A DNA stretch of 48,770 nt, filler included, from Dirinaria sp. TL-2023a (lineage: Eukaryota), in NCBI GenBank assembly GCA_051941275.1. It is 2 parts of 2 records of this genome, joined end to end, with 100 filler letters (N's around TTAATTAATTAA, not from the genome) between each part and the next. Parts side by side here need not be neighbours in the genome. Positions count along the whole stretch, not along the records: positions 1 to 24,346 come from JAVEBF010000191.1; 1 more part is not named here. One strand, given 5' to 3'. The position numbers and the translations under genes were made by a program. Under the pieces are notes generated by a model. It did not search any database. It saw nothing but the letters and a program-made list of their open reading frames with translations, and was not told where the DNA came from. Below, in pieces: positions 458-24,446 of this stretch (the stretch's first letter is position 1; each line of letters starts with the position of its first letter).

Positions 458-1987
458 TTAATGAGACCCATTCACCTCCTCGACACCGATCCACTCAGCT
501 TCGATGATCCCCAACTTTGCCGCGGGGGGCTGCTTGATACCCAGGAGTCGGAATCCCGGGTCGGCCTCGTGAAAAAGGCGGTCCCAGTCCGCGGCTTCCC
601 GCTCCTTTGCATTCAGCATCTCGAGCATCGTCAAATCGTACGCGCTGGTGGATGTATACTTAGCTGAGGCTCTCGAGCACAGGCATGACATTTTTCTATT
701 CACGATGTTGGGGAAGAGGCAACTCACCGGATTTCTCTCTCCTTCAACAACGAGACTTCGCCGGGCTGCGGCACGACATACTCATGGAGGACGACCTTAG
801 CGCCTTTCTTCAATGCAGGTATCAGGCTTCGCAAGATTCGGATGGCGTATTGATCTGACCAATCGTGCAGGATCCATTTGAAGAAATACACGTCCGCGTC
901 CTTGACGGGCTGCTCCGTGAAAAAATCGTGCGCCATGAAGCTGACCCTCTGTTTCAGAGGCTCGGGCAGCTTCTTCGATTCGGCCTGCACAACATCCGGA
1001 CGATCCTGAACGATGATTTTAAGCTTCGGGAAATGATCCGCGAGTGCGATACCGAATGTACCGCTAGAACCTCCTATGTCGACGACGGTCGCCGCTCCTA
1101 AGTCGGCCCATGGATAGTTTTGGCAGATGTGGTGCGGTGAAAAACCAGGGTCTTGGGCCAAATTCGCCATGGCTTTGGCAAACCGTTGGCCGCGGGCGGG
1201 ATCCTTAGCGAGACAAGCGAAAAGAGAATCCGAGGTATTGTTTGCCAGCTGGAAGCCGGCCTGATTCGGTTCCTGCGAACCAGGCCACTTCACCATGGCG
1301 TCCACAACCTAGATCACCATATTAGACAAGCCAGCATAGACGCGGCTACAGCCTATTGTGCTTGAGTTCTGGTTGGCTTACGAACCTTCGTAGCGCTGGT
1401 CCAATTTTCCTCCGTAATTAATGCTATTGAATCCTCCATCCCCGGCTGAACGGCCAAGAACTTTGACGCTGCAGTATGCGCGACGACGCCGGGCCGTGGC
1501 TCGGCAAAGATATGGTAGGTCATTGCTGTTCTTATCAACCGGCGCGTGTCAGACTCGACAAGGCCGCAAGAACGAGCGATCTCGTCGTAGGTAGCTTCAA
1601 ATTCGAAGCTTTTGGCGATCTCAAATCGATTGACGGCATGAAGACTAACAAGAAAGTTGTGCTGGAAAATGTGACGTTGTTATCAGCGTCATAGTACAGC
1701 ACCAATCAATCGAGGGCAAGGACGTCGGTTTCGGGCGCCAAGCTTACGTATGGGGTAAATAAAGTACCCAATGGGCCTGCGATCAGTGCGTGAAGCTCCT
1801 CGGTCGCTTCCAAAATCCGTTGTCGAGATTCGGCTACGTCAAGAGGCAAAGGAATGAAGGGCGGTGTACCTGGGTCGAAGGACGGTGTCGGAAGAGCTTG
1901 AGCAGACAGATAACTATCGAAAGTAGTAGTATCGCTTGCTATCATGGAGGATAGCTCCTTGATGCGAGTCATGGTGCTACTACCCAT
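458..1987 (-). CDS. SAM-dependent O-methyltransferase (fungal OmtA/Methyltransf_2 type), 4 exons, ~427 aa
   Basis: Exons 1987-1748, 1661-1386, 1308-728 and 644-458 join in frame with GT-AG introns. Motifs VVDIGGSSG, IVQDRP, FMAHDFF, ILHDWSD, NAKERE. Confidence 0.93.
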
Positions 1988-2674
1988 GGTGAAAGATACT
2001 GTGTAATAATATCTGACGGGATCTAGTGATGTTGTTGGCTAGAAGACACGTCCAATAAATAAAGGATGGCGTGCACTACTGGATCAGCAATGTGAATTAA
2101 TCCTAAAGTTGCACCTGTCAACCGACTGCCTTTAGGCTCACGCGGGTCCGCTCAGGTCTTTCGCGCTCTTCGGCGCTCTTCGTTACAGTTATGCTATTCG
2201 ATTGGGTCCCGTTTGGATTGGCAAGTGCTTTTTGTACCAATTCGTACCTTATTGACCCCTCGGATAAACAATTCTCGATATCGTTTGACTTTAAAAGCAC
2301 TAATGTACCTGATATAATAATAAGTATAATAACGGCGTCTGTCGCGTATGTGATGTTTATGATAGTATGCTTTCCTGTTAGTACTCTCGAGATACAACTA
2401 TACGTTTGGTACCTATCCTACTAGTGGGGAATTTGTATTTTGTAGGGTTGTTTGCATGCGAATCAATCTAAACAATGAAGTGGTGATATTTGTTATATTC
2501 GGAGGTACAGTAGTATAACATATTACCCTTCGAAACAATCAGACGATAAGGTATCGTGTCCAAGTCCAAACAGGCCCTTATTGGGGGCTACCTTGTAGTA
2601 TGGATTTATCTTTAAAAATGATTCACAAGACCCGATTCTGAAGGGATTGAAGCCTAGTCGAAGTTATTGAAAAC

Positions 2675-5092
2675 CTATCCATTGAGGTAAAACGGATATC
2701 GGTCAAAAAGATTCTATTGATCATTAGACTATGAGCTTGACGTTCGTATACCTATTGAGAAAGGTCGACGATTAGCAGGTGCTTACCCAGTCAAAATAGT
2801 CTTGCAGATTCAAAGCATCATCGAAGGTATCCATCGCTTGCATGCCGTGGGTAGAAGCGCCTTGCTGGGGCGACTGAGGGACTACCATAAAGGATGGAAC
2901 TTCTAACGAGTTGCTCTCGTTGCTTGGAGTAGTAGCGGGGGTCGTGTATCCATAGACTGCCTTTATTTTGCTCTCCATGGATCTTAGCCCCAAACTAATC
3001 TTGCAAGCTTGATTGGAGCCGGCTTTCTGGGCGTCAAAAATCATGACGGATTTATTCAGTAGCTCTAGCTTTCGTTGAATGTTGCGTTCTGAGGATTGAT
3101 GAAGCCCTTGTGCCCGCTCTTGAAGAAGCACTAATGATAGGATCATTGCAGCAAGGAAGAAGTCAGTCGTGTTGAGCGAAGAGAGCATCCAACGTTCTTC
3201 ATGGAGCTGACCACCTGGTTTCGCTTCCTGATGCAGATCAGCTTGCACCTCCAACATAATCATGGAAGCATCCGCGCATTTATCGATAGTTTGTAGAGAC
3301 GGTAACCGTAGTGTGAGATTTCGTCGATGAAGTATGCAAATGCTCTTTTGGAACAGTATCTCGAGATTGGCCCGCATCATGATGACATAGGGCGTGTCGG
3401 CAAAAGATTGTGCCATGCTCCTTACTTTGAAGGGCGAAGGCACGGCCTCGTGGGTTTGTCGAACCTCTGCATCAAGCGCAGCGATCTTTTGGTCAGAGGG
3501 AGCCTTAAAGGATGACTCGTACTTGAGCAATTTTTCGAATGCGCCCATGAGCCTGGCTTTGATTAGAAAATACAACATCGGAGTTGCCTCCGTCTCCGGC
3601 CGTGCAACCGGTAGCGCAGTACTGGTTTCATCAAAATCCGAATCTTGAAGATTACGAGGTAGTGCTGTATCAGAATTGAGCGACTGCGTTGAGCTTGGAA
3701 GACCCATTTGATAGCTATTGAGAAGATCGAGCTGGCGTAGAACAGCCCAGCAACGCCGCCTCATTTCCGCTTCGAAGACTGCAATATTGGGAAGGTGGTC
3801 GGGGTCACGGTGATAGCCCATGCGAAGTGCTTGACGCACAATCAAACCGAACAGCATCCACAGCTCACCCCCCGGCTCTGGACTGCACATGTACTTGCAT
3901 TGAGTGTATAAGAGTAATGACTCAACAACATACTTCTGAGGCTGTGTGAAGTCGCCAAAAATCATACATTGAACGGTGGCCTTGAGAAATTGGTTCTTGG
4001 CAAAGCCACCATCGAATTTTGGCTCAGGACTCCTCATTTCACTGAGAAGAGCCGATACAGATAGAATTGCATAGAGCTGGGCGATCCAAAAGACCGGAAC
4101 CTGATGGGGGTTCTTCCAGAATGCTTCGTACTTCTCCATTCAGTGATTATCTTGTAAGGGGAGTTTATGGGCTCACCGTTCTTTGAAAACTGTAGATGTG
4201 TATAATAGCTTTGGCACTTTAGCTCTCTGGGTAGGTTTGAGGAGATGGGATACGCACGGAAAACGGCGTATTTCAGGTTAAAATATTTGGAAAGGTATCT
4301 GTCTACCTCCTCCCTTGGTGGTAAGCTTGAAAGCACGGTTTCCAGACTAGGTGGCCGTCCCATAGTGAAAAGACTTATTTGTTCTGTCTCGGTCATCATT
4401 CGTGGATGGTTGTCGTCGGCACCAATCGACAGCTCGTCAGCGCTGGCATCCAACTCGGCTATGACGCGTTGTATCTTTGCGGGTCAGTGCTATATTCCAG
4501 TCACAGAGTACGTGGTACACATACATTGCTCAAAATCACCGTCCAGGTGGTCGGCCCCACAGTTGCAGGAACGTCTTCTTCCGGAGTCGATATACTTGTC
4601 GAGACATCTTCTGAAGAGGTACCGGACGCTGGGTTCGTGGTGGAATCGGTGCTATCCTGGATTGTATAGACCGTTACTGAAGTCTCGTATCGAACGGGAC
4701 ACTATTGCGCACAGGACTCTGCGTTTTCCCTTGGTGGATCTTTATCGCCTCCGCCACCAGATTTTCTAGACAATGTAATTGATTCCGAGTGTGCTCGTTC
4801 TTGTTGGTGCTATCGACAGCGATAGGAGTTTGCAGGTCCGCAGTGGTAGCATACGTACATGACGCGGCATCGCTACGGTTGGTACAGTGCTCACAGGGTT
4901 GAGCACGATTGCATTTTAGCCTATCGTGGTCAGTAAGTAATTTGACAGGTAAATATCGCCTCACTTTCTAACTCTGCACGGAGCACAAGAGAGAGGAGTA
5001 CGATGTCTCTTGGTGACCTTGGTAGATGGCGAGGGTCGTGGAGTGTAGCCGTCGAGGCGGAATCTGTGTTGGAAGGGAGGTTTCTCAGCCAT
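2675..5092 (-). CDS. Zn(II)2Cys6 transcription factor with fungal-specific TF middle domain (probable cluster regulator)
   Basis: Splicing out intron 4964-4921 gives CAPCRVRKLKCNRAQPCEHCTNRSDAASC. The large exon has ALRMGYHRDP / EAEMRRRCW / LPRNLQDSDF. A short last exon NLFDRYPFYLNG* ends at 2675 and is less certain. Confidence 0.9.
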
Positions 5093-6216
5093 GGCCTTCT
5101 GATGGCGCACCTTGACACGGGACAGTCTTCATGCGCAGTGCCAATGATTTACTTCTTCGAGCAAGACTCAGACAGCCTATTGGCAGTACGCAGCTAGGCG
5201 ACGTTGGTCATCATGTTTGGCGAGATGAACATCCATGGAGGTGAGATTTTGTTCCACATGCTGGAATGACTCGAATGGGTCCAACGAGGTCGGAATAATA
5301 CACGGACCGAACCCTACCAAACGTAACCCTGAATTGGTCTCCAACACAATCGTATCTAAAGGTACAGTACTCATACCTTCCCATGGCTCAGACCCAGTAT
5401 CTTCAGGGGAAAGCACACTTTCTACCAGCTCCAGGAAATTCCACTATTCTGGATAGATTCTAGATGCTCTTATCGGCCACCACAACATGTGCCACTCTGT
5501 GTGGTGCACTTGCCTGGGGCCACGACAATCACAAAGGATGAATACCTCGAGCATGCGCTTTCTTGTCAAACTTCTTGCTTTTAATTTCATTCGTCTGACA
5601 ATAGTTGTTCTGGGCTAGACCTGCGAATGATATATCGAAGGTGTGACTCCATGTTTAGCGCAGTGCGATTGGTAGTTTGGACACCGATGATGCGTCGTCA
5701 CACTTTGTCCAGCCTCTTTGAAGATTGAAAGGTGAAGTAAGCAACTGATCCTCGTACCCTTTGAAGCCCTTCTAGACTGTCGCGTCAGACTGAAAAGCGG
5801 AGATCTTAGCTCGGCATCCTTTCAAGGTCGAAGTAACGTCCTGCAGCCTGATATTTCCACCCTTGACACGCTCAGCTACGAATCGGACTCTCGCATAACG
5901 CACTGCTCCGAGATAGTTTCACAATGGAACGATCGGCTAGTGCGCTGCTAATTGGGGCAATATTTGAAAATCCGGAATTCGGTGTTTCCCCATGGAGTAA
6001 TTCTCTTAAGTCCGCAACAACCCCCAGGCTTTCAACATAAGGATAAACATCCAGCTTCGACTAGCCCGAATCCATATTAGTCTAACGATAGGCATCTGGT
6101 ACCGACGAGGCTGCTGACACGATTTGGTGATGCTCTAGAAAATCTACAACTTTTACCTACTATCAATTTCTCGTCTCTCCCCACTTACCGAGCAATTAGG
6201 AATCAAGACATCTACA

Positions 6217-8158
6217 ATGACAGACCTAAAACCTCTAAGTGAAATGGCCATGGGTCAGCCAGGCGAACACTCCTTCGAGGATAGAGATGAAGAGATGGAG
6301 CATGAGAATCGATCCAGACCAAACACCTCTCGACTTAAAGGCTTGAGGCTGGTAATCACGCTTGTGGGGCTCTGCTTTGCGGTATTCTGTGTCGCTTTGG
6401 ACAATACAATCATCGCAACTGCAATTCCGTACATTACAGATCAGTTCAAAAACTTGAACGATGTTGGATGGTATGGGTCGGTCTACCTTCTGACGACTTG
6501 CGCATTTCAACTTCTGTATGGAAAGCTCTATAAATTCTTTAGCATCAAAGCGGTCTTCTTGACCGGCCTTTTCATCTTTGAAGTGGGCTCTTTGATCTGC
6601 GGTGTCGCCCCTAGCTCTATATCCCTGATCATCGGCAGTAGGTGAAACCCGCGTTATTTTTGATCACCATCACTAATCTTTAGCAGGAGCTATCGCTGGC
6701 CTGGGCTCCGCCGCTGTACGTTTTATCAGTCTGACCTACCATACTAAATACTAAAAATACCAATTGTCAGATATTATCCGGAGCTATGATTATCATTGCG
6801 CATGTGGTAGCCATGGAACGAGTCCCTGTATTCATAAGCATGATTGGAGGCATGTACGGAATCGCTAGCGTCGTAGGGCCTCTGGTAGATGCTCATTCTC
6901 TATCGGCTTCCCCATCAAGCTGATTGTGGCTAGCTCGGTGGAGTTTTCACCGAAAAGGTGACGTGGCGGTGGTGTTTTTACATAAATCTACCCCTTGGGT
7001 GCGGGCTATAATCTTACAGAAAGACATGCCACTGATCATCGAGTAGGGGCTTCACGGCTGCTGGCCTTGTTTTCTTCCTGCGACTCCCCCCCAGAGATGC
7101 CCGGCGGGGATATCGTCCAGAAGAGGTCTTTAAACAACTTGATCCTATTGGCACTGTTCTCTTCGTTCCCGCGATAATATGCCTTCTTATCGCTTTGGTG
7201 AGTCCTACCGACACAGGCTGGTAAAATGAGGGCTCACTTTGATAGCAATGGGCCGGAACAACCTATGCCTGGGGCAATTGGCGCATCATTTTCCTCTTCA
7301 TTATGTTTGGCGTGCTTTTAGCTACATTCGTAGCAGTGCAAGTATGGCAAGGCGAAGCAGCAACCGGTATGAGTCCAGTCATACCAATAATATAGCTCAG
7401 CTGATCTCTAAACAGTCCCTCCACGCATCGCCCGCGAACGCAGTGTCGCCTTTGGAACGTGGTTTGCAATATGCATGGGGGGCACTTATTACGTCTTCAT
7501 ATATTATCTTCCCATATGGTTCCAGGCGATTAAGGGCGTCAGTCCTCTGCGATCCGGGATTGACACGCTGCCAATGATCTTGGGAAATGTCTTCGGAGTC
7601 ATCTCAGCCGGAGCTCTTACGACGCGGTTTGGCTACTATATGCCATGGATCTTTCTAAGTCTCATCTTTATGAGCATCGGCGCTGGACTTCTGACGACAC
7701 TGAAGGTCGACTCGAGCACAGCACAGTGGATAGGCTACCAAGTTCTCTTTGGTCTTGGCACTGGTTGGGGCTTTCAACAGACTGCCGTAGCCGCACAGAC
7801 TGTACTAGCTCTTGTCGATATACCCATCGGCACGGCTCTCATGGTATTCATTCAACTGCTCGGAGGTGCCATGTTCGTGACGATTGCTCAGAATATCTTC
7901 ACCAATCATCTGGTGAGCGGAATACTCGCCATACAGATTCCTGACTTAGATCCAAAGCAAATCGTTCAAAGTGGTGCCACACATCTCCGTAGACAGATTC
8001 CAGATGTCTACCTTCCACAAGTCTTGATTGCTTATGACGAGGCTCTCGTTAAAACCTTTCAAGTGGCTTTATGCCTGGCATGTCTATCGCTGTTGGGGGC
8101 TGTAGGAATGGAATGGAGGTCGGTGAAGAACAAACAGATCGTAGCTGCCGTTGCATAG
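6217..8158 (+). CDS. MFS drug/toxin efflux transporter (14-TM DHA2, AflT/GliA-like), multi-exon
   Basis: Motifs [27 protein letters not shown], spliced [35 protein letters not shown] and the C-terminal MEWRSVK. Confidence 0.93.
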
Positions 8159-9825
8159 CTATGGACCAGAGAACGCTACCGGTGCACCAAACAGGCATTT
8201 ATAGAAAGCATAAACTTATGTCCTATTAGCATTGACAGGCCCTGCATAAAGAACAGCTTCCTCTAGTTTCTCCCTCAGCTGTAAATGGTGACATAAGTGG
8301 AAAGGTCAAATCACGCCAATGAACGTTTGATGAAACTTCATAGCATATTTACGTCCATTCTACCAGGCAGAAATTTCGAGCCCGCGATTAGAGGCTAGAA
8401 TAGAGCCAAACGTCATTGCAACAGAGTTGAAAACTTTGACTGAGATATACAACACGATCGAGAGGATACTCGAACTATCATTGGGATAATTGATGGCGCG
8501 AAATCAAAACAGCCTCCAGTCGAGCTTTACTGATCTTCATCTACTTTCTTCATTCATTTACTTTCTTGTCAGAGTCAGGTTTACAGTGATTATGTTCACT
8601 TCGTCAACAGTATTTAAACTGTCCGCTGCTTTTGACATTCCAGGATACATCAATTGGAAAGATCATTTCTGAAATACTTTTTCAATGAGCTTTCAACTCA
8701 CAAGTGTATTGTATATGTAGATGCACGTACTCTCAGGAGCAGTAGTATGGTTATGAATTTTCCATGCCTTAACACGGTGTGCCAAGGAAGGCACGCTCGA
8801 TCGGGTTTAGCGCTGGCCATAGGGATTATTCCCGGCCCACACTGGGTATTTCTCTTGCACCCAGACCACCATGTAGTTGGCATCCTCATTATTATCCATA
8901 CACTTCACCCACATTATCAGACATTATTGGACCGGTCATTGTTAGTTCCTAACAATTATACTAACCAATGCATACAAATTTATCCAACGCCGCAATTAAA
9001 AGATCTATATGTTGTATCTTAATATGCAGACTATTTATGACCTCAGAAACAATTCTACGAAGCAAACCTGTGTTCACTTGGTAGCTTAGGGGAATGCGAC
9101 GATACTACTGCAAACGCTAAATTAAGTCAATACAGAGGTTGCCGACATAAGTCCTGGCAAGCGCCGAAAATTTCACTAGTGCAATCAGTCGATTATCGCG
9201 CGGGAGATGAGCCGGCAATACTGCTCAGACACAGCCCTTTGCTGGCTATGATGCGCCTGAGCTTCCCCAGGCTCAAGTCTGAGCTTCCACGAGCTCAGTC
9301 GCAGTCGCCTGAACGAAGCATTCTTGGCGTGCGCTTTCTTCGCTGGGACTCACGATGTCAGCCTCCGTAGGGACATGGCAACGCCGGACGCTTCCTGCAA
9401 AGATTACTTATCTTATTGAATCATATAATCTTTATCTGGGATAATTATTCATATAGTCTCTATCATGGACTACGGGGTAGCAATATAATGAATATGGTTC
9501 TGAGAACGGAAACATGCCGAATACAAAAGTTCTTGCCGGCCTTTCGTCAGTCGAGTCAACGTTGTGTCTCACACGATCAATTGTGCATTCGGTTATTTAT
9601 CCAGACATGGGGACTAATCTGAGACTTCCTACGATTTAAAAGGAGGTCCATGTAGCATGATGAGAATAGCACTTCGCTTACCTGCCACGCAGTATACTCA
9701 GTTCCGGGGCTGCTCGGGTCCTCAAACCTTGATGACGAGGATAGTTCCGAGTGTAAGTCAGCGATTGGGATTGAAGACTGCTTTTTCGTGACTGCCTACT
9801 TTGCATACCTTACACAGCCTTGAAG

Positions 9826-12800
9826 ATGGGAGAATACTCTGTTGGATTTCAGCGCGCTAGCATTGGCTTTACAGATGAGGGCAAGCAGAACATACGCAAC
9901 ATACCAGAATTAATTGATTATAACGCTAAGTTCAATCCCGACCACCTCTTTTGCGTCCAGGCCCAGAAGGCGTTGAACGATGGTTCCGCAGGCTTGCTCT
10001 ATGTTACTCACGGTCAGCTCAAACAAGCCATTCTCTGTTGTTCACGATGGCTTAAATCATTTTTGGATGAGCTGGCCCTTCCTAAAGCAACAAAAGAAGG
10101 CGTTGATAACCGCAAAGGTCCCCCAATCGCTCTACTGCTCGACAGTGACATCAATCTGCTTGTTCATGTATATGCTTTGATCAGCCTGAGTGTGCCTGTA
10201 AGTAAGGTCAGGGCGGTAAATCTAATGTAATATTAAGCTTAGAGTAAGACAATAGGCGCTTCTGCTCTCCGCACGCCTTAGTCCTGCCGCGGCAAGACAC
10301 TTGCTGGACAAAACGTCAGCTCGAGCGTTAATCCATTCGGCTCGTCTGGCATATACAGCAAAAGAAATCCGTGAAGAGTCTCCCAAGCAAGATGACAGCC
10401 AGATCAAGTTTCACACGGCATATGACTATCATGTCTGGTCCAACTCAATGAACGATGGCATTGATGAGAACCAAAGCATTTGCGTCTCGAATTTTGACGG
10501 AGGGGATAGCGATAGAAACGTTCTGATACTCCATTCTTCGGGAACGACAGGGCTACCAAAACCAATTTATACATCGCACAAGTATCTGCTTTCTTTCCTG
10601 ACATGTCACGCTTTCGACTCTGAGGAGTCGGCTAGCCATTTAAATTTATCTACACTTCCACTCTATCATGTGAGATCAATTGGATACACCAACTCGTCGA
10701 AAACGAAGCTGACAATAGGTTGGCAGGGATATGGTCTTCTCGCGCCAGCCTTGTCTTTAGGGATAGGCAAGACCTTCTGTATACCCATATCCTCCGTCAG
10801 TCCAACAGCCGCCTCTATACTCCGCTTGCTTGACTCAGTGAGTGCTCGATGCATGATGAGTGTCCCATCTATCCTGGAAGAGATCGCTAGTCTTCCAGAC
10901 TCAACGGGAGTGCAGAAGTTGGGTAAGCTTGATTTCGTCGCTTTTGGAGGCGGCAATATGAAGCCTGCGGTTGGGCATGCTCTGAAATTGGCTGGGGTCA
11001 AATTGCTCAATCACTTTGGCACTACGGAGAGCGGACCTCTGGCTCCGATCTTTATCCCGGGTTCCGATTATGACTGGCAATACTTTCGGCTTAGACGGGA
11101 TATTGAGATACGGGTCGAGCCCGCTTCGACATCGATTAGCAAGTTCAAATTCATCACATATCCGCCTGGATGGAACGGACCTTTCGAAATTCAAGACGAG
11201 TTCGTGACTAGTCCACAGAACCCCATGCTCGATTACCAACCCGTTGGCCGAACAGACAGCGTGATCGTCCTCGCCACAGGAGAGAAGATACAGCCTAACA
11301 TTCTTGAAACAGCGCTGAGTGAGCATCCACTGGTTATGGCAGCAGTGGCATTCGGCGATGGTCACTTTCAAATGGGTGTCATCGTACAACCTTCACAGTC
11401 GACGCCATCTGAGTGCTTCGAGGATTTTAAAGGGAGAATCTGGCCCACGGTGCACGAAGCGAACGAGCGTATGGATTCACATGCTCGAATTGCTTCCAAA
11501 GATGCTATCATTATTGTGCCTCACACCACGCCACTTCCTAGATCTGATAAAGGCTCTCTGCTGCGCAGAGAATTATATGCCATGTTAAGGTCTGAGATTG
11601 AACAGATGTATCAGCAGCTTGAATCTGCAAACTCCGTGGCCATGCTTGACCGCAATCGCGGCATAAAAAATCAACTGAAGGATCTCATACAAGACAAATT
11701 ACCCAAATGGAATGTCCCGGCACAGGACTGGACATTTTCGAGCGACCTTTTCGAGTTGGGAATGGACTCTCTACAAGCAATTGAGCTTCGACGTCTGCTG
11801 CTGCCAAACATTGAATCTGCAAGGCAAGTTCCTAGAGACTTCATTTACCGCCACCCGTCGGTCATGGAGCTTGCAGAAGCTATTGAAGCTACGTATCGCG
11901 AACAGAAATTCGATATATTAGTAGAGTCTCGGCAAGAGCTGGTTGACGGTTTTGTTGAGCGATTTAGCCTCCAGACACCGAAAAGGGATTTTGTAATCCT
12001 GTTGACAGGTAGCACAGGTAGTCTTGGAAGCCATGTCCTTGTCCATTTGGCAAGCCTTCCGATGGTCAAGGAGGTCATCTGCCTTATTCGTCCTACTACT
12101 AACCGGGATGGAAATACTCATGATAGACAGGACGAAGCTCTTCGAGACAAGCTCCTGCCGTCGTGCTCACCAGAGTTGCGCCTCAAAATCACCACAATAC
12201 AAGCAGTACTCAGTCATACACAGCTAGGTTTGACATCAGAAGAATACGACTCAATAGTCCGGCGGGTCACACATATTTTGCACACTGCGTGGCCAATGAG
12301 CTTCAAGTGGCGACTCTCGTCCTTCCAGTCACAGTTTCAAACGGTGCAAAATTTGCTCAGGATGGCCTTGGATGCTCGCGACGGTAGAGGAGACACGCGT
12401 ACTCGCAATCGAGTGAGATTCGTCTTCGTCTCCTCAATTGCCGTGGTAGGCGAATATCCAAGTTCTCGCAAGACTTATTCCGCTGTGCCAGAGACGCACG
12501 TAAGTGATATCACCTGTACAAACCAAATTGGATACGCCGAAGCAAAGCTAGTATGCGAGAAAATAATTGAGCGCGCGCGAGATAGCTTTGCTCCGGATCT
12601 TGAGGCATGCTGCGTACGCATTGGGCAGATGTCTGGTTCCCAACAGAGTGGGTTCTGGAACACAGACGAGCACATCGCCGCACTACTCAAATCTTCCATA
12701 GATATCGATGCCTTACCAGAGCTTGAAGGAGTGAGTAATTGTTCCACAACCCTGGATCTCCATAGCCATGTATGATTCTAATATCTGCCCAGACCCTCTC

Positions 12801-13392
12801 CTGGCTCCCAGTCGATGTTGCAGCCGCGGCTCTCTCCGATATATTGCTCTCACGAACAACGGAAGCGTTTACCGAAAATGAAAGCAGACACCAACCGCTT
12901 TCTCCAGTTTACCACCTCGAGAATCCTATCCGCTGGCCATGGAAGGATGTCTTCCATGTACTAGCTTCGAAAATCGTGCAAAAAAGTGTGAACCACGGTT
13001 CCCAATTGCCCTTCGTACCGTATCCGACTTGGCTAGATCGTATAGTACAGCTAGGGGAATCAATCGCCAATGGTGATGAAGGAGCTGCTGATGGCGCTGT
13101 GACGAGGAAGAATGCAGATGCCATACGACTTCCAGGCCTAGAAACGGCAACGACGCATGTGAGTACGAATGTGCGAAAGAAGACCCGCCCAGCATACGAA
13201 CTCGTCGACTTCTTCGCTGCAGACTTTCGACGGATGGCCTGCGGCTCGGTCGTTCTTGACACGCGCCTGGCTTTGGAAGCTTCAGCTTCCCTCCGAGCAT
13301 TTGCGACGACGGCCGACGATGCTGCCGTCAGGGACAGGATGCTGGAGGGCTATGTGGATTATTGGTATCGCTGTGGTTTTCTCGCGCCATGA
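9826..13392 (+). CDS. NRPS-like A-T-R enzyme (aryl-carboxylic acid reductase type), 4 coding exons
   Basis: A domain: LHSSGTTGLPKPI, FGTTESG, GRTDSVIVLATGEKIQP, LPRSDKG. T domain: DLFELGMDSLQA. R domain: LLTGSTGSLG, GYAEAKLVCE, RIGQMSGS. Introns at ~10198-10255, 10670-10726 and 12731-12792. Confidence 0.95.
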
Positions 13393-14217
13393 TTACCGCA
13401 GGGGGGACTCACCATCTTAGGCACTGTCGAAGAACCATCAATCCTTCGCTGACGCTCTGCTGACTTCAAACTTGCTATGCTTGTTGTACTTATCAGAGTT
13501 TTACTATGAGTTACCCCATTCTTTACCATTTTGTAGAGGTTAGAGAAAAAGGGCATTTTGTTCTCATTCGCGTTTGACCAGCAGGTCATTTTGATAGACA
13601 TCAGTCCACGCTGAATAAAGTACATACACTCTGAAATGAGAATGCTATAGAAACCAGTCTCATTGCTCTAGATACTTCTGTAAATTTTTCACTATTTCTT
13701 GTATCGAACGTGTTGAAAACGGCCTTAGCATAGGGCTGAGCCGAAGATTATCCAACCGGCCCGAAGTCAGACCGATGCATAATATCGACCATGTTGTTTA
13801 CCTCTATGCAGGCTAGCATAGATTTCTGTGATTTCTTTCATTATCCTTGCCTTTATGGCAACCTAGGTAGACGAGCATCTAATGCCTATACGGGAGCCTC
13901 GTTATGCCTTTAGGCAGATTACCAATAGTCAGCGTTGTTGAATGCTGTGTCTAATAGAACGCCACGATAAGTGACATGTTCTCTTTACATACGAACGGTT
14001 TGTCTTCAATTTTGTTGATCGCGCTAGCTCTACGACTGTCCAACACTCAAGCATTTTGGGCATTCTTGTGCCAGCTTTATACCCCCAAAATGAGCTCTTT
14101 TTCCAGAAAGACCCATGATTCTCCCATCGCCGCAATGCAACTGATCCCGCACGAATCTTAAAAATCAAGAGTCATGCGTTGTGTCATCTTACCGCTGCAG
14201 TAGAATCATTTGGAAGC

Positions 14218-15702
14218 TTACTGCCCGTCTTGATGTGGGGCCACTCCGTCTCTCTCTCGGACTTGAGGCCTCTCGAACCTCGCCTCGATCAACGATACAG
14301 CACTACCCTTGGGAGTTCTGGTGCCTAGGAATTGATACCCCTGGCCAACGGTGGTGAAGAGCTTTCGCCAATCGGAAGCTGTTCGCTCGAGAGAGTTCCA
14401 GCCAGTTGCCTGTATCATGTCCAGGTTCCTAATGTTGACGCAAGAAGTCAGCATGGTTGCTTTCTATCTATCCGTGTTAGGATTGAATAAGGTACTGGCC
14501 TTTTCTGCTTTTGAGTCCAAGATGTGTTGGCTACCTCATCTGGCAAAAACTCATAGATCACCACCCTCGAGCCGTTCTTCATGGCTGGGATCAGTCTCTC
14601 CAAGATTTGTGCTGCGTATTTGTCGGCCCAGTTGTGCAGGATGAAGCGAAAGAAGTAGACATCAGCATGCTTGGTCGGTTGCTCTGCAAAAAAATCGTGG
14701 GCTACAAATTGGACGCGACCCTTGAGCTCGGATGGTAACAGCTTAACGCCTTCGGCAACAGTACCTTCCAAATCTTGGACAACAAATCTCACGTGCTTCG
14801 TTGCGCGAGCGAGAGCTTGGCTTACTCCGCCATGACCTCCGCCCACATCAACAACACAGGCCCCGGGAACATCCAGAGCCTTCCAGTCGTAGGCGTTGAT
14901 GAGATGCTTAATGTCATAGAGGCTGCCTTGCGTCATGAATCTCATCCCTCCACCAAAACGACGTGATCTCTCCGAGTTGCGAGCTAACCGTTGGTAGAAA
15001 GGGTCTGATGTCTGTTCTGCAATATTAAACCCAGTCTCGGTCGGTTCACTGGACTGCGGCCATTTCTGCATAGCCTCGAGCACGTGTACAGATCCTGGCG
15101 CAATGTCGTCCAATAAAAATCCGACAGTATCCTGCATGCCTTCGCTTCGCTTCAAGAGAAGTGAAGCTGCGCTATGGCTTACGAAGCCTGGGCTTGTCTC
15201 TTGGAAGAATCGATTGATTGCAGCATGTTGCACGAAACGGCGGACTAGTGTTTCATCGAGACCGCTGGAACAGGCCAGTTCTGAGTAGGATACAGCACCA
15301 TCATCCGGCACGTGCATGGCCAGCTGGTAATGATATATGAAACGGAGACTGAGAGCATCCGTGAACTACGAGTACATCCGATTAATCTTCCGGAAATAAC
15401 GCAAAAAAAACAGCGGAAGAAGCTAAGCGCGCAGTAATCATTTAAGGCTTTATGTTCAGGGGTTGGGAATCGCTCACGTTGAACAGAATTTCATAAAATT
15501 GGCCAACCGGTCCGTTTCCGAGTTGCTTCAGGTTTTGGCACCCATCCACAAACTCCTTTCGGCATTCTTCCACATCTTCGGGCAAATCAGATAGCGTGTC
15601 GCGATCAAATGAAGAAGACGGAAGGCCTTTACTAGCGGTGAAAGCGTCTAGACGCTTCGCTAGGGCGAGAATTCCTTCAGCTTGTTGAGTCAACGACGCC
15701 AT
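14218..15702 (-). CDS. Second SAM-dependent O-methyltransferase, 3 exons, ~433 aa
   Basis: Exons 15702-15478, 15365-14500 and 14428-14218. Motifs VVDVGGGHG, VVQDL, VAHDFF, ILHNWAD, NSLERT. The second intron needs a GC donor. Confidence 0.92.
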
Positions 15703-16327
15703 TTTACATCTAGTCTAACTACGCCGGTGGGCCTGGCTCATGTGAGACTTATAACTATCGTGATCTCGTGGTCACCTAGCTTTTGAGCGCCCCAGGCGCG
15801 GGCGAAATCATGCCCAACGAAAATGATCCCGCGGACCTGCGTGCGCTGACTCAGAACCAATGGCGGATTAGCCGAAAATTACCTGACTTTCAACCTGGGC
15901 CTTAGACCCTTACGTCCGTACAGCCTCGTGTTGTGGCCAGATCTGCTGCCAGGCATGCTGCAAGATCGTCGGAGTTTTTCCTGCAGTAGGATCCAAAGTG
16001 GACGCAGGAACAGCGTTAAGCTTTCATGCAGTCCAGTCGCACGTGTTCTCTGCGGACGTGGACCATCAGCCATTCCTGAAGGCTTTCTGAATCCTACGCT
16101 TCATATTGAAGACTGCTGAGGATTGAAACAAATGACCCCCAAATACGAAAAGTGCCTCGAGCTGACCCGAAGAGGCGTTATGGTTGCAACCTTTAGCCCA
16201 GGCGGAATGGCAATGAAGCGGCAAAGCTCGGCCACAGATTCGAGCAATTCTTGTGGAGCAAAGTTATAAGAGCAGTGAGTTTTCCTGGATTACTATGTTC
16301 GAATGGTCCACGCGGAGCTCAGCTAAT

Positions 16328-18389
16328 ATGACAGGCATAGTAAGGAAGATAGTAAAGGCTGCGACTCTCGCTAGTCTCTTCTATTCTAGTTGTCAAGCCC
16401 GACGACTGCTGGGCTCATCCTTCGGCGGACCAGGTAATGTAACTTACGACTATGTCGTAGTCGGTATGTCATGGGTTTTATGATTTGTCCTGGAATGAAG
16501 TGGACTAATGCAGGTAGGCGGAGGAACTGCGGGCCTCGCCATCGCTACTAGGCTTGCGCAAGGCCAGCATACTGTGGCTGTCATTGAAGCTGGCAGCTTC
16601 TATGAAATAGGAAACAGCAATTTCAGCCAAGTTCCCATCTACGCTGCCGCCTTCACAGCCAAATCACCCTTGCAGAAGTCTCCTCAGGTTGACTGGGGTT
16701 TCGTTACTACTCCTCAGCCGGTGAGTAATACTTTTTCCGGCGCTAAAGCTCGGCGATCACTAATCGATGAGTCGTTAGGGCTTTGATGGCCAATCGCCCC
16801 TGTATACACGTGGCAAATGCCTAGGAGGTAGCTCGGCAAGGAATTATCTATCCTACCAGATTGGTCCCAGTAGCTCGTATGATCTATGGGCGCAATTGGT
16901 CGAAGACGATGACTACAGATTCCACAACTTCCAGCGATACTTCCAAAAAAGTCTTAAATTCACACCACCTTCGAACTTGCGGCCTGCTAACGCGACTCCT
17001 TCATACGACGCAGCTAGTCTTGGCAGTAATTCTGGGCCTCTTTCTGTGGCGTTTAGCAACTACGCAATGGCTTTTAGCTCTTGGGCCCGCCTCGCGCTGG
17101 ACCAGTTAGGCTTTCCACGCATCAGAGGTTTCACCAGCGGCAACATTCTTGGACAGTCATACCAGCTTTTGACGCTCAACGCGACGAACATGGAACGAGA
17201 CTCCTCTGAAACCTCCTTTCTGCAGAAATTGGGCTTGTCTAATCCAAATTTGATTATCTATCCGTCAACTTTGGTGAGAAAGGTACTTTTTGACGCGAAC
17301 AAGAAGGCGACTGGTGTCATGATAGATTTTGGAGGAGAGCCATTCTTGTTGTCTGTCAACAAGGAGGTGGTACTTTCAGCAGGCGCGTTTCAGTCTCCAC
17401 AACTCCTCATGGTTTCCGGAGTTGGCCCCAGTTCCACGCTGAGAGTGTACAACATCCCAGTCGTTGCTGACTTGCCAGGAGTTGGGCAGAACATGTGGGA
17501 TCACGTGGTGGGGGGGCCCTCTTACAGGGTCAACGTACTTACCACTACTGAGCTCAGCATCAACCCTCGATTCGAATCTCAAGCTGTAGAAGATTATCTC
17601 TCCCAACCGCCTAGCGGCATGCTCACAGATGGCGGATCCGACTTGCTAGGTGAGTCTTTCACATCCTAGAAGGGGGTTTCCTTACTTGTCGGTTAATATC
17701 GTAGCGTTCGAGATCCTTCCGAACCGTACTCGTAGGCCGCCATTCCAGCAGAACGTCTCCTTTTCATCGGACTGGCCTGATGTTGAGTACATCTTCACAT
17801 CTGCTTTCCTGGGTAATCTCACCACGGGAGCACAGCCTGTGGACGGGTACAACTATGCCAGTATCTCCATGGCCCTGGTGGCACCCTACTCCCGGGGCAA
17901 TGTCACCATCAACTCTGCAAATGCGGCGGAACCCCCCGTCATCAACCCCAATTGGCTCACTGACCCCCGTGATCAAGCAACCGTCATCGCAGGCTACAAG
18001 CGTGCAAGGCAGATTTTCCAGAGCCGTGCGATGGCTCCCATACTGATAGGGAACGAGTATTTTCCAGGAGCTGCGGTGCGAAGCGATGCGCAGATCCTCG
18101 ACGTCATCAGACAGAGCTTTACTACGGTCTTCCACGCTTCGTGCACGTGCAAGATGGGCGTCAAGAGCGATCCCGCGGCCGTTGTAGACTCCAAAGCGCG
18201 TGTCTTTGGAGTTTCAGGCTTAAGAGTCGTGGATGCTTCATCATTCGCGGTGTTACCTCCCGGTCATCCTGTCTCTACAGTTTGTAAGTACAGCCAGCAT
18301 TCGCGCTCAAGATGTCGGAGGAGGGGCTGACTGTATGCGCAGATGCACTTGCAGAGAAAATTGCTGCGGACATCCTGAGCGGGAATTGA
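16328..18389 (+). CDS. GMC (AA3) flavin oxidoreductase with a signal-peptide-like N-terminus, PatE/PkfF-like
   Basis: RRLLGSSFG..YDYVVVGGGTAG across an intron, VIEAG, GKCLGGSSARN, SAGAFQSPQLLMVSGVG, VGQNMWDH, catalytic VFHASCTC and PPGHP. Last exon ALAEKIAADILSGN*. Confidence 0.93.
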
Positions 18390-19136
18390 GGACGAACATA
18401 GGGAGGAGTAAAGGAGTCGTTTGATGAACAGAACGCGAGTGGTTTTTCAGCGTATGTACGAGTACTGTAAGCAGGCGTCGGGAGAAACGGTAGGGTGAAA
18501 GGGTTTTCCATTCTGACTACATGTATTACTGAAGTTTCTGTACATCAATAGCAGTCGTCAGCCACCAAGTTTTCAAATAAATCTTATAAATCAGTGGGAA
18601 ATCGGAAATCGTACCATCGGAATCATGTTATTCGGGTACGCTAGCAGGGGCGATCTGCATCAAGCCATGCAGATTGAAGTGCGAGGAGAAACAGGTATGG
18701 AGTGCTTCCTTCCTTCCTCCATCTTTCACCCATACGTACATTATCACTGTATCTTGGCTGCCTAAAGCAAGGTCCGTAAGGTCGGGAGGGGAAACCCCAA
18801 TTAGGTAATTATCTCCTACTCACACTCTCCCGCTGAACGGACTTAACTGATGTGGTGCGCAGCCTTTGTCGGCAATCCGCGTCCAAAATTGCCTGTTTCG
18901 GCACTTTTATTAAGTCCGAGCTCCGAGCAAGGGGAAAAAGTATCCGAGTCAGCCTCTAATGCACATGTCAAACTCAGGTCCATTTACTATCCCAATGTAG
19001 CTCTCTAGGTTGAGCATGACGTGAAGTTCTCCTCGAGCACACCGTCATCATCATCATCACCACAACCGCTGTCCAACACGCATCTCGCCTTCTCCCCCTC
19101 GCCATCTCAAATTCTTCTCAACGCCCATTCGAGATC

Positions 19137-20347
19137 ATGCCTCCGCCATTTGATCAGATCTTTCCACCCTCCCCAACTTTCACGGAACATCATGCCGGCG
19201 ACCAAGGCGGTCGGGTGTTCTTGATCACCGGAAGCACCTCCGGAGTCGGCTTCGAGCTTGCTAAACTGCTTTATGGCCTGAACGGAACCGTCTACGTCGC
19301 AGCGCGCTCCCCGGAAAAGATTAAGCAAGCCATTAAATCGATCAAGAGCCAAGTTCACACCAAGGCTGGCCGCGTGGAAGCGTTGGAGGTGGATCTGGCG
19401 AACCTGGCATCGATCGGGCAGTCGGCTCGCGCATTTCTCGCAAAAGAGGACCGGCTCGATGTCCTTGTGCACAATGCCGGTCTTATGACGCCCCCGGCTG
19501 GCAGTAAAACAAACCTAGTGAGTTTTGAAATCGTTGCCGCACAGCGTATCCAGACCTGGAGGCTCACTGATGATGGGGTGGTAGGGACATGATCTCGAAA
19601 TGGGCACGAACTGTCTCGGGCCTTTCCTCTTCAACCATTATCTTGAGCCGACCCTCAAGAAAACGGCGGCATCGTCGGAAAACCGCCTTGGCGTCCGAAT
19701 CGTCTGGGTCGCATCAATGATAGCCGCGTCGGTACCAAAAGGCGGCATCACGATGAATAACGACGGAAGCCCCAAGGTCATCAAGGTACGCAAACGTAGA
19801 AAGAAAAATCGGTATGCGCACAGGTACTGAGGCTAGTAGAACGCGATGGAGAATTATATGCAGAGCAAGGTCGGCAATGTCTTCCTGGCCAAAGAGACGG
19901 CTCAGCGCGTCGACAATGATGGCATTATAAACGTGGTAGGTTCACCGAAAAGCCTGCTTTGGGATATCAGCATCAACTGATGACGTTCAGAGCGTGAATC
20001 CAGGACTGCTGAAGACGGGGCTGCAGCGGCATGTTTCGGCCCTTCAACGCATGATAATGGTAGGACGCGACCCTCTTCCTGTCCTCTGGATACTTGTCCA
20101 CCTTCTTAGAGCCTTTGTGTCTGATCCCTTCCATCAGAATCTCATGTTGAAAGACCCCAAATACGGCGCATACTCGGAGTTGTTTGCCTGTCTCTCGCCC
20201 GAGGTCACCCGCCAGGCCGGCAGCCCCTTCATCCTCCCGTGGGGTCGCTTCGGCGAGATTCCGGACCATATTCAGCAGAGCATTGATGAAGGAAAGGCTT
20301 CTTCTTTCTATCACTGGTGCGACCGAGAAACCAAGGCATATCAGTAG
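19137..20347 (+). CDS. Short-chain dehydrogenase/reductase (retinol-dehydrogenase-like), multi-exon
   Basis: Motifs ITGSTSGVG, LVHNAG, MGTNCLGPF, catalytic NYMQSK, VNPGLLKT and FILPWGR. Confidence 0.92.
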
Positions 20348-21201
20348 GGACGGGGACGGGTTTGGGGTCTGAGTACGGATGCATGCAAGTTACAATCAGC
20401 ACTTTAGCAGGCGCAGTAAATAGGCCACATCACATAATACCCAATTTTTGCGAACTGATGGATTCCCTGCTTTCGCGGAGATTCTTGGGTTTGTGAGTTT
20501 GTCGGGTAGCTTGTAGATTTCCGATTCCGATGCAAAATCCCCCAGTCGACAGCACGTGACCATTGAATCCGTCCTCCCATCTTGGTTTAGCTTCATTACC
20601 GGCAACTTTACCATACATGTATACAACGAAGCGAAATCTCAGTGCCAAGAAATCACTGTAATTTTTTGAAAGTCGACGTCATACCCTGTAAGACCTGTGA
20701 AGGGTGATGCATGCAGAGACCAAGTCGTTCAGCGAGTGCAAATCATTAGTGCAGTGATGCTCTTGGGTGTCTCCCCAGGCCACTATCCTATGCGATCCGG
20801 AGGACGACCGATGGATACCATGGACAGTAGTATCTGCCCTGCAGGTCAATGCGCGCGCACACGCAATGCTGAATCAAGACATTTGCCCCTGATCAGGCCA
20901 AGCACTCCAAACAGATCCGGATGGTAGACAATCACCAATCAAACCGTCGTCCGTGAGTTTAGTCAATCGATCGAACAATCTACGGAAAATGTCTGAGGAA
21001 TTCCGGTGTCTGTATGAACGAGGCCGAAGCAGGCTGGATGCAGATACGGACCTGCGTGGGTTTACTCGCGCCACCAAACTTTCAATGCTCGTTGCCTGTT
21101 CGCCATACTGCATTGAAGCTCTTAGTATTGCAGACTTATGATTTCCCTGGGTATGACATGCTCATCATCTGTTGTGTCTTGCAGTCTCGCTCTTGTGTGA
21201 A

Positions 21202-23062
21202 ATGCAGTATCTGAGTCTTGGAGCGCCTTTGGCTGGCATCTTGTTCGTCTTGTTCTGGGTCTTCCGGTCGTTCTTCAAGCTCCGAGATGTTCCTGGGCCA
21301 TTCCTGGCATCGTGGACAAATTTTCCCCGTTTGTGGTGGGTTCTAAGCAACCGGGCTCATGACATCCATATCCAGCTGCATCGCCAGCATGGAAAATTGG
21401 TGCGATTTGGCCCGAACATGGTGTCAATATCGGACCCCGCGGAGATCCCGACGGTATACGGCTTCAGCGCGGTTTTTCAGAAAGTAAGCGACCGTTGGCC
21501 TGGGTCAGGTTGGTTTTCAGAACTGATTTGACACGGCATAGTCCGATTTTTACCATGTCCTGCTTCTTTACGCCAGAGGAAAGCCAGTACCTACGATTTT
21601 TGCAACACAGGATGAAGGTTTGCACCGAACCTTACGGAAGCCCATTGCTGCCATGTACAGCATGAGTCAGGTGGTTTCATTCGAATCGCAGGTGAACTCT
21701 ACAATGGACTACTTCTTCCAGCGCCTGGACGCCTTATTCGCCGACGGGAATGCGGTCTGTAATTTGGCATTCTGGCTTCAAGCTTTCGCATTTGACGTTA
21801 TAGGCGAAATTACCTTTTCAAGGCGTATGGGATTTCTCGAGAAAGGCAAAGATATAGAGGGCATCATGGCGTCAATCTGGAAATACTTCTTTAGAGCCGC
21901 CCCAGTAAGTTCTCTATCTAACGGCTGTGTCCCTCCATCCTCTCTGCATCGGATGTGCAAAAAAGTTCTCTGAGCATACATATACTTAATACTGTCAAAA
22001 TCAAAATGCAGCTTAATGTCAAATCTCACAAAGATTCAATTCTTAGGTAACCCAGATGCCATGGTTGGATCTAGTATGGACCAAAAATCCAATAAAACAG
22101 CGTCTGCGCAGAGCTAAGCCAAACCCGATTGTGGCCTTCGCAACCGCGAGAGCCCAGGAGCGACAGAGTCAGATGGAGAAAGCCCCATCCGCTAAACAAG
22201 CTGTGGAAAATAAAGACTTCCTGTCTCGATTTCTTGAGGTGATTCAAAAGGATAAGCAAATTCCGCCTTTTGCACTTACCGCCTGGACTACGTCCAATGT
22301 CACTGCCGGTAGCGACACAACAGCTATTCTCCTTCGCTCTATATTCTACAGCCTCATGCGGCATCCTCAGTCCATGCGTTGTCTGCTTGATGAGATTGAT
22401 CAGGCTGCACAGGTAGGCGCGCTCTCTCGGCTGGTGACCTGGAAGGAAGCTCGCGCACTTCCATACCTTGATGCGTGCATCAAGGAGGCCGCTCGTCTGC
22501 ATCCCCCTTTTGGGCTACCTTTTGAACGGGTCGTGCCTTCAGGAGGCGCAACTATATGCGGTCGCCGCTTCGCAGCCGGGACTGTCGTTGCTATACCTGC
22601 GTTCGTTGTCCATCGAGACGTGGATACTTTCGGCGGCGATTCTGACGAGTGGAGGCCTGAGCGGTGGTTTTGTGAAGAGTCCAAACGGCGGCGTATGGAG
22701 AATTCGATGCTTACTGTAAGTGAAGGACCCAAGCTCTGCCCTTGGAGTGCCGCTAGTTGAATTGAAATGGCTGATAAGTTGTGCCGGCCCCTTTAGTTTG
22801 GTGCGGGCCATAGAGCTTGCTTAGGGAAAAATATCTCTTACCTTGAGATCTACAAATTGGTGCCGAGCATGTTGAGGAAGTATGAGGTGAGTCAAATGCA
22901 GAGGGGAAAGACAGCAGCAATGCTGTTGACTGATGATGACTGATATTCGTCGCACAGATTACCTTTGCAAACCCAGCCCAGCAAGAGTGGGTGGTGAAAA
23001 ATCGATGGTTGACTCACCAATCCAATTTCAATGTGAAACTACGGCAGCGGGTGGTGGACTGA
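21202..23062 (+). CDS. Cytochrome P450 monooxygenase (MpaD/CicH/PkfB-like), 5 exons; start codon uncertain
   Basis: N-terminal TM segment, then VPGP, VRFGPNMVS, FAFDVIGEITFS, AGSDTT (I helix), KEAARLHP (ExxR), WRPERW, heme FGAGHRACLG (~22797-22826). Last exon ends RQRVVD*. Confidence 0.93.
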
Positions 23063-23580: not shown

Positions 23581-24246
23581 TCATTCATCCTTACCCTTCT
23601 TCCCATACGAATGGGCCATCCTGTTCAGCATATGCTTCTCCACCGTCAAACCTTCATCCTCCTCACTCCCATCCAACGCCTTCAGCTCACAGTCTAGATT
23701 CCCATCAAAGAAGAAAACAATACTATACCTCTCTCCCAGGCCCTTATGCACGACCCGGTGCAAGCTACTCTTGTACCTCCCGCCCGTCCACTTGCTCAGC
23801 ATATCCCCGACATTGACCACGTACGCATCCGGGTTCGGGGTTATCTGCACCCAGCGCTCCTGGAGCGCATCGTACACTTCCAAGCCGGGGTTCTCGTCCG
23901 TGAGAAGGAGGGTGACGGCGCCGAAATCGGTGTGCGCGCTGGCCCCGAACTGGGGCTTGCTGGTCGCGGCGGTGGCGGGAGGGTAGTGCAGCAGGCGCAG
24001 GGGCGCGGCGGGCGTGTTGGAGACGAATTCGTCGAAGATGTCCGGGCCGTAAGGGAGTGAACGCGCGAGGAGCGAGAACACCGTCAGGGTCAGCGAGTAG
24101 ATGGCGGAGTAGTAGCGCTCGCAGGGGGACCGGAACTCGTCGGCGGAGAGATGATGTTCCGCTGGCCAGACGTTGGGACCCATGAAGAAGCGCTTGGAGA
24201 GGGTACGTGGATCGTTGGGAGGAATGTCGGCGCCGATGTAGAAACC
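23581..24246 (-). CDS. 2-oxoglutarate/Fe(II) dioxygenase (IPNS-like family); only the last exon is visible, the 5' part is lost in the gap
   Basis: Acceptor ccag|GGT at 24246 opens GFYIGAD..GPNVWP, LRLLHYPP, AHTDFG (HxD), VVNVGDML, SSLHRV and RYS. Confidence 0.88.
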   Translation of the reverse strand, partial: GFYIGADIPPNDPRTLSKRFFMGPNVWPAEHHLSADEFRSPCERYYSAIYSLTLTVFSLLARSLPYGPDIFDEFVSNTPAAPLRLLHYPPATAATSKPQFGASAHTDFGAVTLLLTDENPGLEVYDALQERWVQITPNPDAYVVNVGDMLSKWTGGRYKSSLHRVVHKGLGERYSIVFFFDGNLDCELKALDGSEEDEGLTVEKHMLNRMAHSYGKKGKDE

Positions 24247-24346: not shown

Positions 24347-24446
24347 NNNNNNNNNNNNNNNNNNNNNNNNNNNNNNNNNNNNNNNNNNNNTTAATTAATT
24401 AANNNNNNNNNNNNNNNNNNNNNNNNNNNNNNNNNNNNNNNNNNNN
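24347..24446. other. Assembly gap or contig linker (N44-TTAATTAATTAA-N44)
   Basis: Exactly 100 nt with a central self-complementary all-frame stop spacer at 24391-24402. G/C homopolymer-rich ends flank it. Confidence 0.97.

Follow-up and report, generated by a model that had tools for sequence, protein, structure and literature searches.

A candidate cichorine/zinnimidine-like tailoring gene cluster in a lichen fungus of the genus Dirinaria

The gene set and its contig

The window examined here (the whole stretch of DNA that was analyzed, 48,770 nucleotides with filler) comes from Dirinaria sp. TL-2023a (assembly GCA_051941275.1), a fungus of a lichen genus, and carries at positions 458-23062 eight intact contiguous genes in the order O-methyltransferase 1 (OMT1), Zn2Cys6 transcription factor (TF), major facilitator superfamily (MFS) exporter, carboxylic acid reductase (CAR) of adenylation-thiolation-reduction (A-T-R) architecture, O-methyltransferase 2 (OMT2), GMC oxidoreductase, short-chain dehydrogenase/reductase (SDR) and cytochrome P450 (Table 1). 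All eight had been named in a preliminary description of this DNA and all are present: Pfam bears out the family of each, catalytic motifs occur where expected, the hand-spliced models contain no internal stops, and the 31 predicted introns are of GT-AG type in 30 cases and GC-AG in one (OMT2, 14429-14499, minus strand). With a probability of roughly 0.6, these genes are read here as a functional tailoring cluster that works like the cichorine and zinnimidine pathways.

Table 1. Features of the cluster contig and of its junction with the next contig in the window.
Feature	Position	Strand	Basis or remark
OMT1, class II O-methyltransferase, 427 aa, 4 exons	458..1987	-	PF00891; pathway membership uncertain
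Zn2Cys6 TF, 691 aa, 6 exons	2772..5092	-	PF04082; six Cys read from model
29-bp non-coding footprint upstream of MFS gene, candidate regulator site	5985..6013	.	93% identical to L018:1959-1987
MFS exporter, 547 aa, 7 exons	6217..8158	+	PF07690, last-exon match below curated cut-off
A-T-R carboxylic acid reductase, CicB-like, 1129 aa, 4 exons	9826..13392	+	Pfam A, PP-binding, NAD_binding_4
OMT2, O-methyltransferase, 433 aa, 3 exons, one GC-AG intron	14218..15702	-	OMT linked to A-T-R
GMC oxidoreductase, 622 aa from first ATG	16295..18389	+	PF00732, PF05199
SDR, 318 aa, 5 exons	19137..20347	+	PF00106; TGxxxGxG, YxxxK
Cytochrome P450, CicH (CYP5077)-like, 502 aa, 5 exons	21202..23062	+	Gene model and identities
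2OG-Fe(II) oxygenase 3' exon, possible ninth member	23581..24246	-	Pfam; cut inside intron by contig end
Contig linker (N run, 12 bases, N run), artificial	24347..24446	.	C191 end 24346, C192 start 24447

The assembly comprises 27.7 Mb in 3105 contigs, one of which (C191) is the whole of positions 1-24346; from 24447 onward the window is the start of an unrelated contig (C192). The cluster is thus open at both ends and nothing to the right of 24346 is its neighbor. When the assembly was searched at DNA level with 1500 bases from the left end of C191 and 200 from the right, no overlapping contig was found. The inventory of eight genes stands, except that it missed a possible ninth, a partial 2-oxoglutarate (2OG) oxygenase gene that directly follows the P450 and is closest to SpoC, TropC and TraH (E 5e-44 to 2e-41). 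Its GC content at third codon positions (GC3) is 0.79, compared to 0.50-0.66 across the eight cluster genes. Its 5' half is not among the seven DIOX_N loci of the assembly, which all come with a 3' half of their own; the DNA beside C191 is therefore either unassembled or overlooked.

The reductase and the P450

The A-T-R is 42.7% identical to CicB over its full length, and the two proteins align closely in the A4-region and A5 motifs. An AlphaFold model has a mean pLDDT of 84.7 and an R domain that resembles the Neurospora crassa CAR 8AEP; this alignment-based fold shows the domains of the enzyme and not its substrate, and a single-sequence fold reached a pLDDT of 36. The public model of the protein (P0001, 1148 aa) retains a 57-base in-frame intron (10670-10726), and the retained residues have pLDDT values below 50 in an otherwise good model, thus supporting the splicing of this intron.

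The preliminary description had called for phylogenies of the A domain and of the P450. In a quick tree of 50 rows the A-T-R falls with CicB in a 48-row ingroup (SH-aLRT 100), as against two paralogues from its own genome. Since this tree held no amino-acid reductases, their exclusion rests on the identity to CicB and on PMC9605436, which in the excerpts available places CicB among the aryl-acid reductases of CAR clade VI, where orsellinate-type acids are reduced, and the amino-acid reducers in clades separate from it. Membership of the A-T-R in the CicB-type aryl-acid CARs is supported by these comparisons, and reduction of an orsellinate-type acid is predicted. That the enzyme instead reduces an amino acid, in the manner of LnaA or HqlA, and leads to a piperazine or similar product is extremely improbable given the 43% full-length identity, the A-domain motifs held in common with CicB and the separate clades of amino-acid reducers (PMC9605436, in part).

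Two side observations concern this enzyme family. Within A-T-R residues 356-363 (exon 3), a Phe is present in 18/18 proteins of the close clade described below, where most relatives have the A5 Tyr; several distant matches also have Phe, so that it is not unique to that clade. Residue 358 is a His; a role presumed for His358 of ATEG_03630, for which a literature search gave no paper, carries no weight here. Separately, the entry for protein P0141, in the cluster of P0028 (a Lasallia pustulata homologue), names a 'carboxylic acid reductase' carried on an expression vector, so that an assay of some lichen member of the family may exist.

Over its full length the P450 is 55.2% identical to CicH (CYP5077A1), 43.6% to PkfB, and 46.9% and 48.6% to two MpaDE-like fusions. 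CicH being nearer than either PkfB or the fusions (47-49%), 'CicH-type' is more exact than the 'MpaD-type' of the preliminary description. The P450 tree was built and is without resolution at its base, and one sequence in it (P0240) is a chimeric long branch. For the characterized zinnimidine (zin) enzymes, Table S5 of PMC12268544 (seen in part) gives 40.6% for ZinF/CicB and 54.6% for ZinA/CicH; the Dirinaria A-T-R and P450 thus diverge from CicB and CicH to the same degree as ZinF and ZinA do.

Spread and conservation of the module

A module of A-T-R, P450 and OMT is widespread in ascomycetes. Among the A-T-R matches listed, 18/120 apparently share a contig with an OMT2 match (in 17 cases one of the top 80) and 8/119 with a P450 match; the call was made from equal size of the longest contig, a proxy that on megabase contigs does not amount to adjacency. 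Adjacency at the level of accessions is found in Delitschia (KAF2205447/52/55), Talaromyces marneffei (TMatcc_006602/606/610) and Loekoesia (Q9225_000713/718/721), as well as in two Gyalolechia, Lecanora helva and Aspergillus ustus (KIA75587, KIA75594). The OMTs that cluster with A-T-R and P450 genes in Delitschia, Loekoesia, Talaromyces and Aspergillus show 57-63% identity to OMT2 (57-59% for the clusters of A. keveii and T. marneffei). A ZinADEF cassette is reported across four fungal classes in the excerpted text of PMC12268544.

Within this broad distribution lies a narrow one. The nearest relatives of the A-T-R are seventeen proteins from ENA, Logan and JGI at 65-81% identity, followed by a match at 52%. 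In the quick tree nine of the 17, a metagenomic sequence (L018) and the C191 enzyme form a clade (SH-aLRT 100, stem 0.57) that sits among A-T-Rs of Ramalina, Loekoesia, Gyalolechia and Trapelia (unstarred support 93-94), a placement from which its members would be lichen fungi. OMT2 has a matching tier at 82-91%, with apparent contigs of 27311, 127868 and 15778 bases in common with clade members. The TF shows the same narrow clade: among 150 relatives listed, two are at 64% and 69%, one partial sequence is at 51% and the rest are at or below 44%.

A metagenome scan returned seven loci, of which one, L018 (8.6 kb), belongs to the close clade and holds the MFS gene (inverted), A-T-R and OMT2 side by side. 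Differences between C191 and L018 at codon positions 1/2/3 are 0.20/0.15/0.47 for the A-T-R, 0.14/0.09/0.47 for OMT2 and 0.09/0.04/0.52 for the MFS exons; with third-position differences of 0.47-0.52 against second-position differences of 0.04-0.15, all three genes are under purifying selection. The footprint upstream of the MFS gene (Table 1) emerged in a promoter-only comparison of the same two loci (E 5e-8). An 8-base motif picked post hoc (6 occurrences vs 1.4 expected) was rejected, since some 8-mer was equally widespread in 147/500 shuffles and 242/500 random sets of real segments; no CGG-type repeat stood out. A search of viral contigs for related loci kept 0 of 83 candidates. Three further loci (L019, L021, L024: 8900-21887) show an A-T-R beside a 2007-aa polyketide synthase (PKS) frame, seemingly starting at its KS domain, and after it a CicH-like P450.

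The proposed pathway

The zinnimidine pathway was reconstituted in 2025 with ZinF, ZinB, ZinE and ZinA acting in turn before a flavin oxidase, according to excerpts of PMC12268544. There ZinF turns 3-methylorsellinic acid into the aldehyde, which ZinB O-methylates and ZinE converts to the alcohol; ZinA then acts as hydroxylase on the ortho methyl group, and ZinD makes the o-phthalaldehyde together with H2O2; the o-phthalaldehyde traps amines as isoindolinones, and reverse action of the SDR leads to phthalides. Modeled on these and other homologues in its reactions, their order, its substrate and the secretion of the GMC enzyme, the Dirinaria pathway would begin with orsellinic or methylorsellinic acid supplied by a non-reducing PKS (NR-PKS) encoded off C191. 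The A-T-R would adenylate this acid, load it onto its T domain and reduce it to the aldehyde; OMT2 would methylate one phenol, the SDR would turn the aldehyde into a benzyl alcohol, and the P450 would hydroxylate the ortho methyl group to give a 1,2-benzenedimethanol for export by the MFS protein. The GMC enzyme, probably secreted, would then oxidize the diol to a lactol or an o-phthalaldehyde, ending as a phthalide or, with an amine, as an isoindolinone, and the Zn2Cys6 TF would regulate the set.

The GMC enzyme has a His/His active site and, by eye, a signal-peptide-like N-terminus, which suggests that the reactive step follows export; oxidation after export is reportedly also the mode of PatE in patulin biosynthesis. 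It is 47-51% identical to the GMC of another cluster of the same genome (on contig C19), and its Atlas neighbors, for which the Atlas gave family names only, include a cluster auto-named xptC.

The o-phthalaldehyde, phthalide or isoindolinone class foreseen in the preliminary description is supported by the CicB-like A-T-R and CicH-like P450 and by the same enzyme types in zin (PMC12268544, in part). Its further statement of a doubly O-methylated product is not supported, for OMT1 lies at the contig edge and is without coverage in related loci, and zin needs one methylation. It is plausible, though not the favored view, that OMT1, perhaps with the TF, belongs to another cluster running left of the contig, so that the product would be methylated once. 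OMT1 is the outermost gene, is 35.5% identical to OMT2 (and ~46% to its best full-length proteins, from an OMT2-seeded search) and has GedA as its best PDB match (E 4e-26); all evidence of linkage concerns OMT2, and one OMT suffices for zin (PMC12268544, in part). On the other side, OMT1 and the TF stand at normal cluster spacing, the close clade of the TF mirrors that of the A-T-R, and no search was seeded with OMT1.

Several findings weigh against the cichorine/zinnimidine-like interpretation. The sole oxidase on the contig is the GMC by Pfam, and no flavin oxidase of ZinD type is present; yet ZinD is the only oxidase to have been reconstituted and, in the excerpts of PMC12268544, is without a homologue in the cichorine (cic) or pkf clusters, for whose CicC and PkfF roles are there proposed from deletions. 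The SDR is only 25% identical to that of a zin-like metagenome locus, L022. No close-clade locus spans OMT1, the TF, the GMC, the SDR, the P450 or the 2OG gene, and no row named cicE appeared among the 120 of 244 OMT2 matches listed, OMT1 not having been searched. No PKS was found on C191, the ends of which are open, in SAT and KS searches of the assembly. The compounds reported from cultures of D. applanata (atranorin, divaricatic acid and sekikaic acid) include none of this type in the available part of PMC11433509. As a separate observation, locus L022 (2169-14800) holds an A-T-R, an SDR, an FAD oxidase-like, a prenyltransferase-like and an OMT frame and looks zin-type, its reading frames having been read by eye.

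A further point against it is that the named relatives of OMT2 and the P450 include Aspergillus clusters that we take to be of ustethylin type. In such a pathway, the product of which is reportedly an open aryl aldehyde, the acid would first become an aldehyde, the 2OG enzyme and the P450 would oxidize two different alkyl groups and OMT2 would methylate, giving an open, multiply oxidized aryl aldehyde in place of a phthalide or isoindolinone. The TropC-like 2OG gene does adjoin the P450, and its 56.5% identical paralogue lies in the C19 cluster with GMC, P450 and A-T-R genes. In A. ustus, KIA75587 (40.8% identical to the A-T-R) and KIA75594 (53.9% to the P450), presumably UttJ and UttC, share one contig. 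The ustethylin (utt) cluster uses A-T-R, 2OG, P450 and OMT (PMC8055633, in part). However, the GC3 of the 2OG gene differs from that of the cluster and its linkage is not seen elsewhere, the A-T-R stands in another subclade than KIA75587, and an SDR and a GMC fit a route through diol and dialdehyde; we therefore regard a ustethylin-type pathway, the leading alternative, as unlikely.

Substrate supply

The SAT and KS searches gave 23 matches of 23 candidates, 32 of 35 and 44 of 50, and no PKS lies within the 9.8 kb to the left or 11 kb to the right of the A-T-R. Thirteen NR-PKS loci, examined wholly or partly, lie on other contigs, with no end overlap with C191. A supply in trans, in which a cluster devoid of a PKS takes orsellinate or 3-methylorsellinate from an unlinked NR-PKS (for example the atranorin-like one on C27, or those on C19, C313 and C852), would be compatible with the proposed pathway and agrees with the 13 NR-PKSs elsewhere, none on C191, and with the lack of one in the 8.6 kb of L018. 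It is nevertheless somewhat unlikely: both contig ends are open, the missing 5' half of the 2OG gene points to neighboring DNA that was unassembled or overlooked, and three other CicB-like genes (38-47% identical, on C19, C313 and C852) each lie ~0.5-10 kb from an NR-PKS, in line with the clade VI rule of an NR-PKS near the CAR gene (PMC9605436, in part). The prior thus favors a PKS gene adjoining C191 in DNA that was not assembled.

The absence of a PKS from the contig also bears on two other views. A role in detoxification or salvage, in which phenolic acids from lichen depsides or from the substrate are reduced and methylated, would suit it too, and clade VI CARs take varied benzoic acids (PMC9605436, in part); such a role is very unlikely, given that all characterized homologues met were biosynthetic and that an exporter and an oxidase fit product formation. 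Distinctly unlikely, though less so, is a PKS-free satellite cluster, conserved in a group of lichen fungi, that would draw on orsellinate or 3-methylorsellinate monomers from depside (atranorin) biosynthesis and export an inert benzenedimethanol, which the secreted GMC enzyme would convert outside the cell to an amine-reactive o-phthalaldehyde and H2O2.

The other clusters of this genome have features of their own. The one on C19 (900-39800, L035-L038) holds GMC, 2OG oxygenase, P450, hydrolase, reducing PKS, A-T-R and NR-PKS genes; its NR-PKS has two ACPs, a C-methyltransferase and a hydrolase domain, and no OMT was found in the cluster by tblastn. Contigs C313 and C852 (L040-L042) carry two more A-T-R and NR-PKS clusters, apparently without a C-methyltransferase; that on C313 also includes genes for a Myb-type factor and a P450 resembling CicH, and a PKS piece at the end of C930 (L072) may be the other half of the C852 PKS. 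On C27 (11076-27356, L056 and L057) a C-methylating NR-PKS, a P450, a small methyltransferase and an MFS gene stand in the order of atranorin genes atr1-4; by gene order and domain content this cluster is assigned as atranorin-like.

Beyond the linker, the start of C192 carries an NAD-dependent epimerase (Pfam, 24539-25565, minus strand) and, by eye, a DNA topoisomerase I-like reading frame (27084-30204, minus strand), both unrelated to the cluster. Linkers that join unrelated contigs can show false neighbors in stretches of this genome.

Comparison with characterized clusters

The locus resembles the cic cluster of Aspergillus nidulans in pairing a CicB-like A-T-R with a CicH-like P450, in having an oxidoreductase, an OMT and an SDR (analogous to AN6450 in cic), and in that no prenyltransferase is seen on C191. 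It differs from cic in lacking an NR-PKS (of PkbA type in cic) on a contig with open ends, in its two OMTs and adjoining 2OG oxygenase, and in having an MFS exporter and a Zn2Cys6 TF in place of the ABC transporter and Myb factor that cic reportedly contains. The cic pathway of A. nidulans also yields hybrid products (PMC11802603). With pkf of A. nidulans it shares a PkfB-related P450, an SDR and a GMC-type oxidase (PkfF, a choline dehydrogenase); pkf reduces by means of a PKS R domain (PMC12268544, in part), whereas C191 has a free A-T-R. The pkf product is reportedly prenylated, and no prenyltransferase is seen on C191. In comparison with zin of Alternaria alternata (PMC12268544, in part), the A-T-R, OMT, SDR, CicH-type P450 and flavin oxidase match the set ZinF, B, E, A and D, but the oxidase is a GMC and not ZinD (by inference of BBE type), no PKS is on the contig, and no prenyltransferase (ZinC) is among the genes of a contig with open ends. 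The utt cluster of Aspergillus ustus (PMC8055633, in part) has A-T-R, P450, OMT and 2OG genes, all present here, the 2OG gene being cut by the contig end and a possible member only; C191 adds a GMC, an SDR and a second OMT, and its A-T-R belongs to another subclade. The cluster thus appears, from these gene-by-gene comparisons, to work like cic and zin without being cic, zin or pkf itself. The claim of a non-prenylated product is not supported, as it draws on a gene missing from a contig whose left and right ends are both open.

Protein searches (MIBiG itself was not searched) found no near-complete, high-identity match to a characterized cluster. To that extent the novelty claimed in the preliminary description stands, but with the module as widespread as it is, that novelty was overrated. 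No such cluster or isoindolinone pathway in a lichen fungus was found in the literature covered, subscription journals being largely outside its scope. Phthalides are known from lichens, among them 5,7-dihydroxy-6-methylphthalide from alectorialic acid (PMC12113121, in part).

Implications

The chemistry is known from molds, and the lichen version is a variant of a known cluster type to which no product has been tied; to our knowledge, products have been assigned to few lichen clusters. With intact genes, purifying selection, a close clade and homologues that have been reconstituted in yeast, the cluster is directly testable and could show whether a GMC enzyme carries out the step from diol to phthalaldehyde, so far a proposal in the case of CicC and PkfF. 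Should a PKS turn out to lie directly beyond a contig end, this would be one more cluster of cic, zin or utt type, with modest structural variation. If the cluster is truly PKS-free, it would imply cross-feeding from depside metabolism, and the satellite arrangement, if true, would add to lichen chemistry a previously undescribed branch that serves defense or traps nitrogen.

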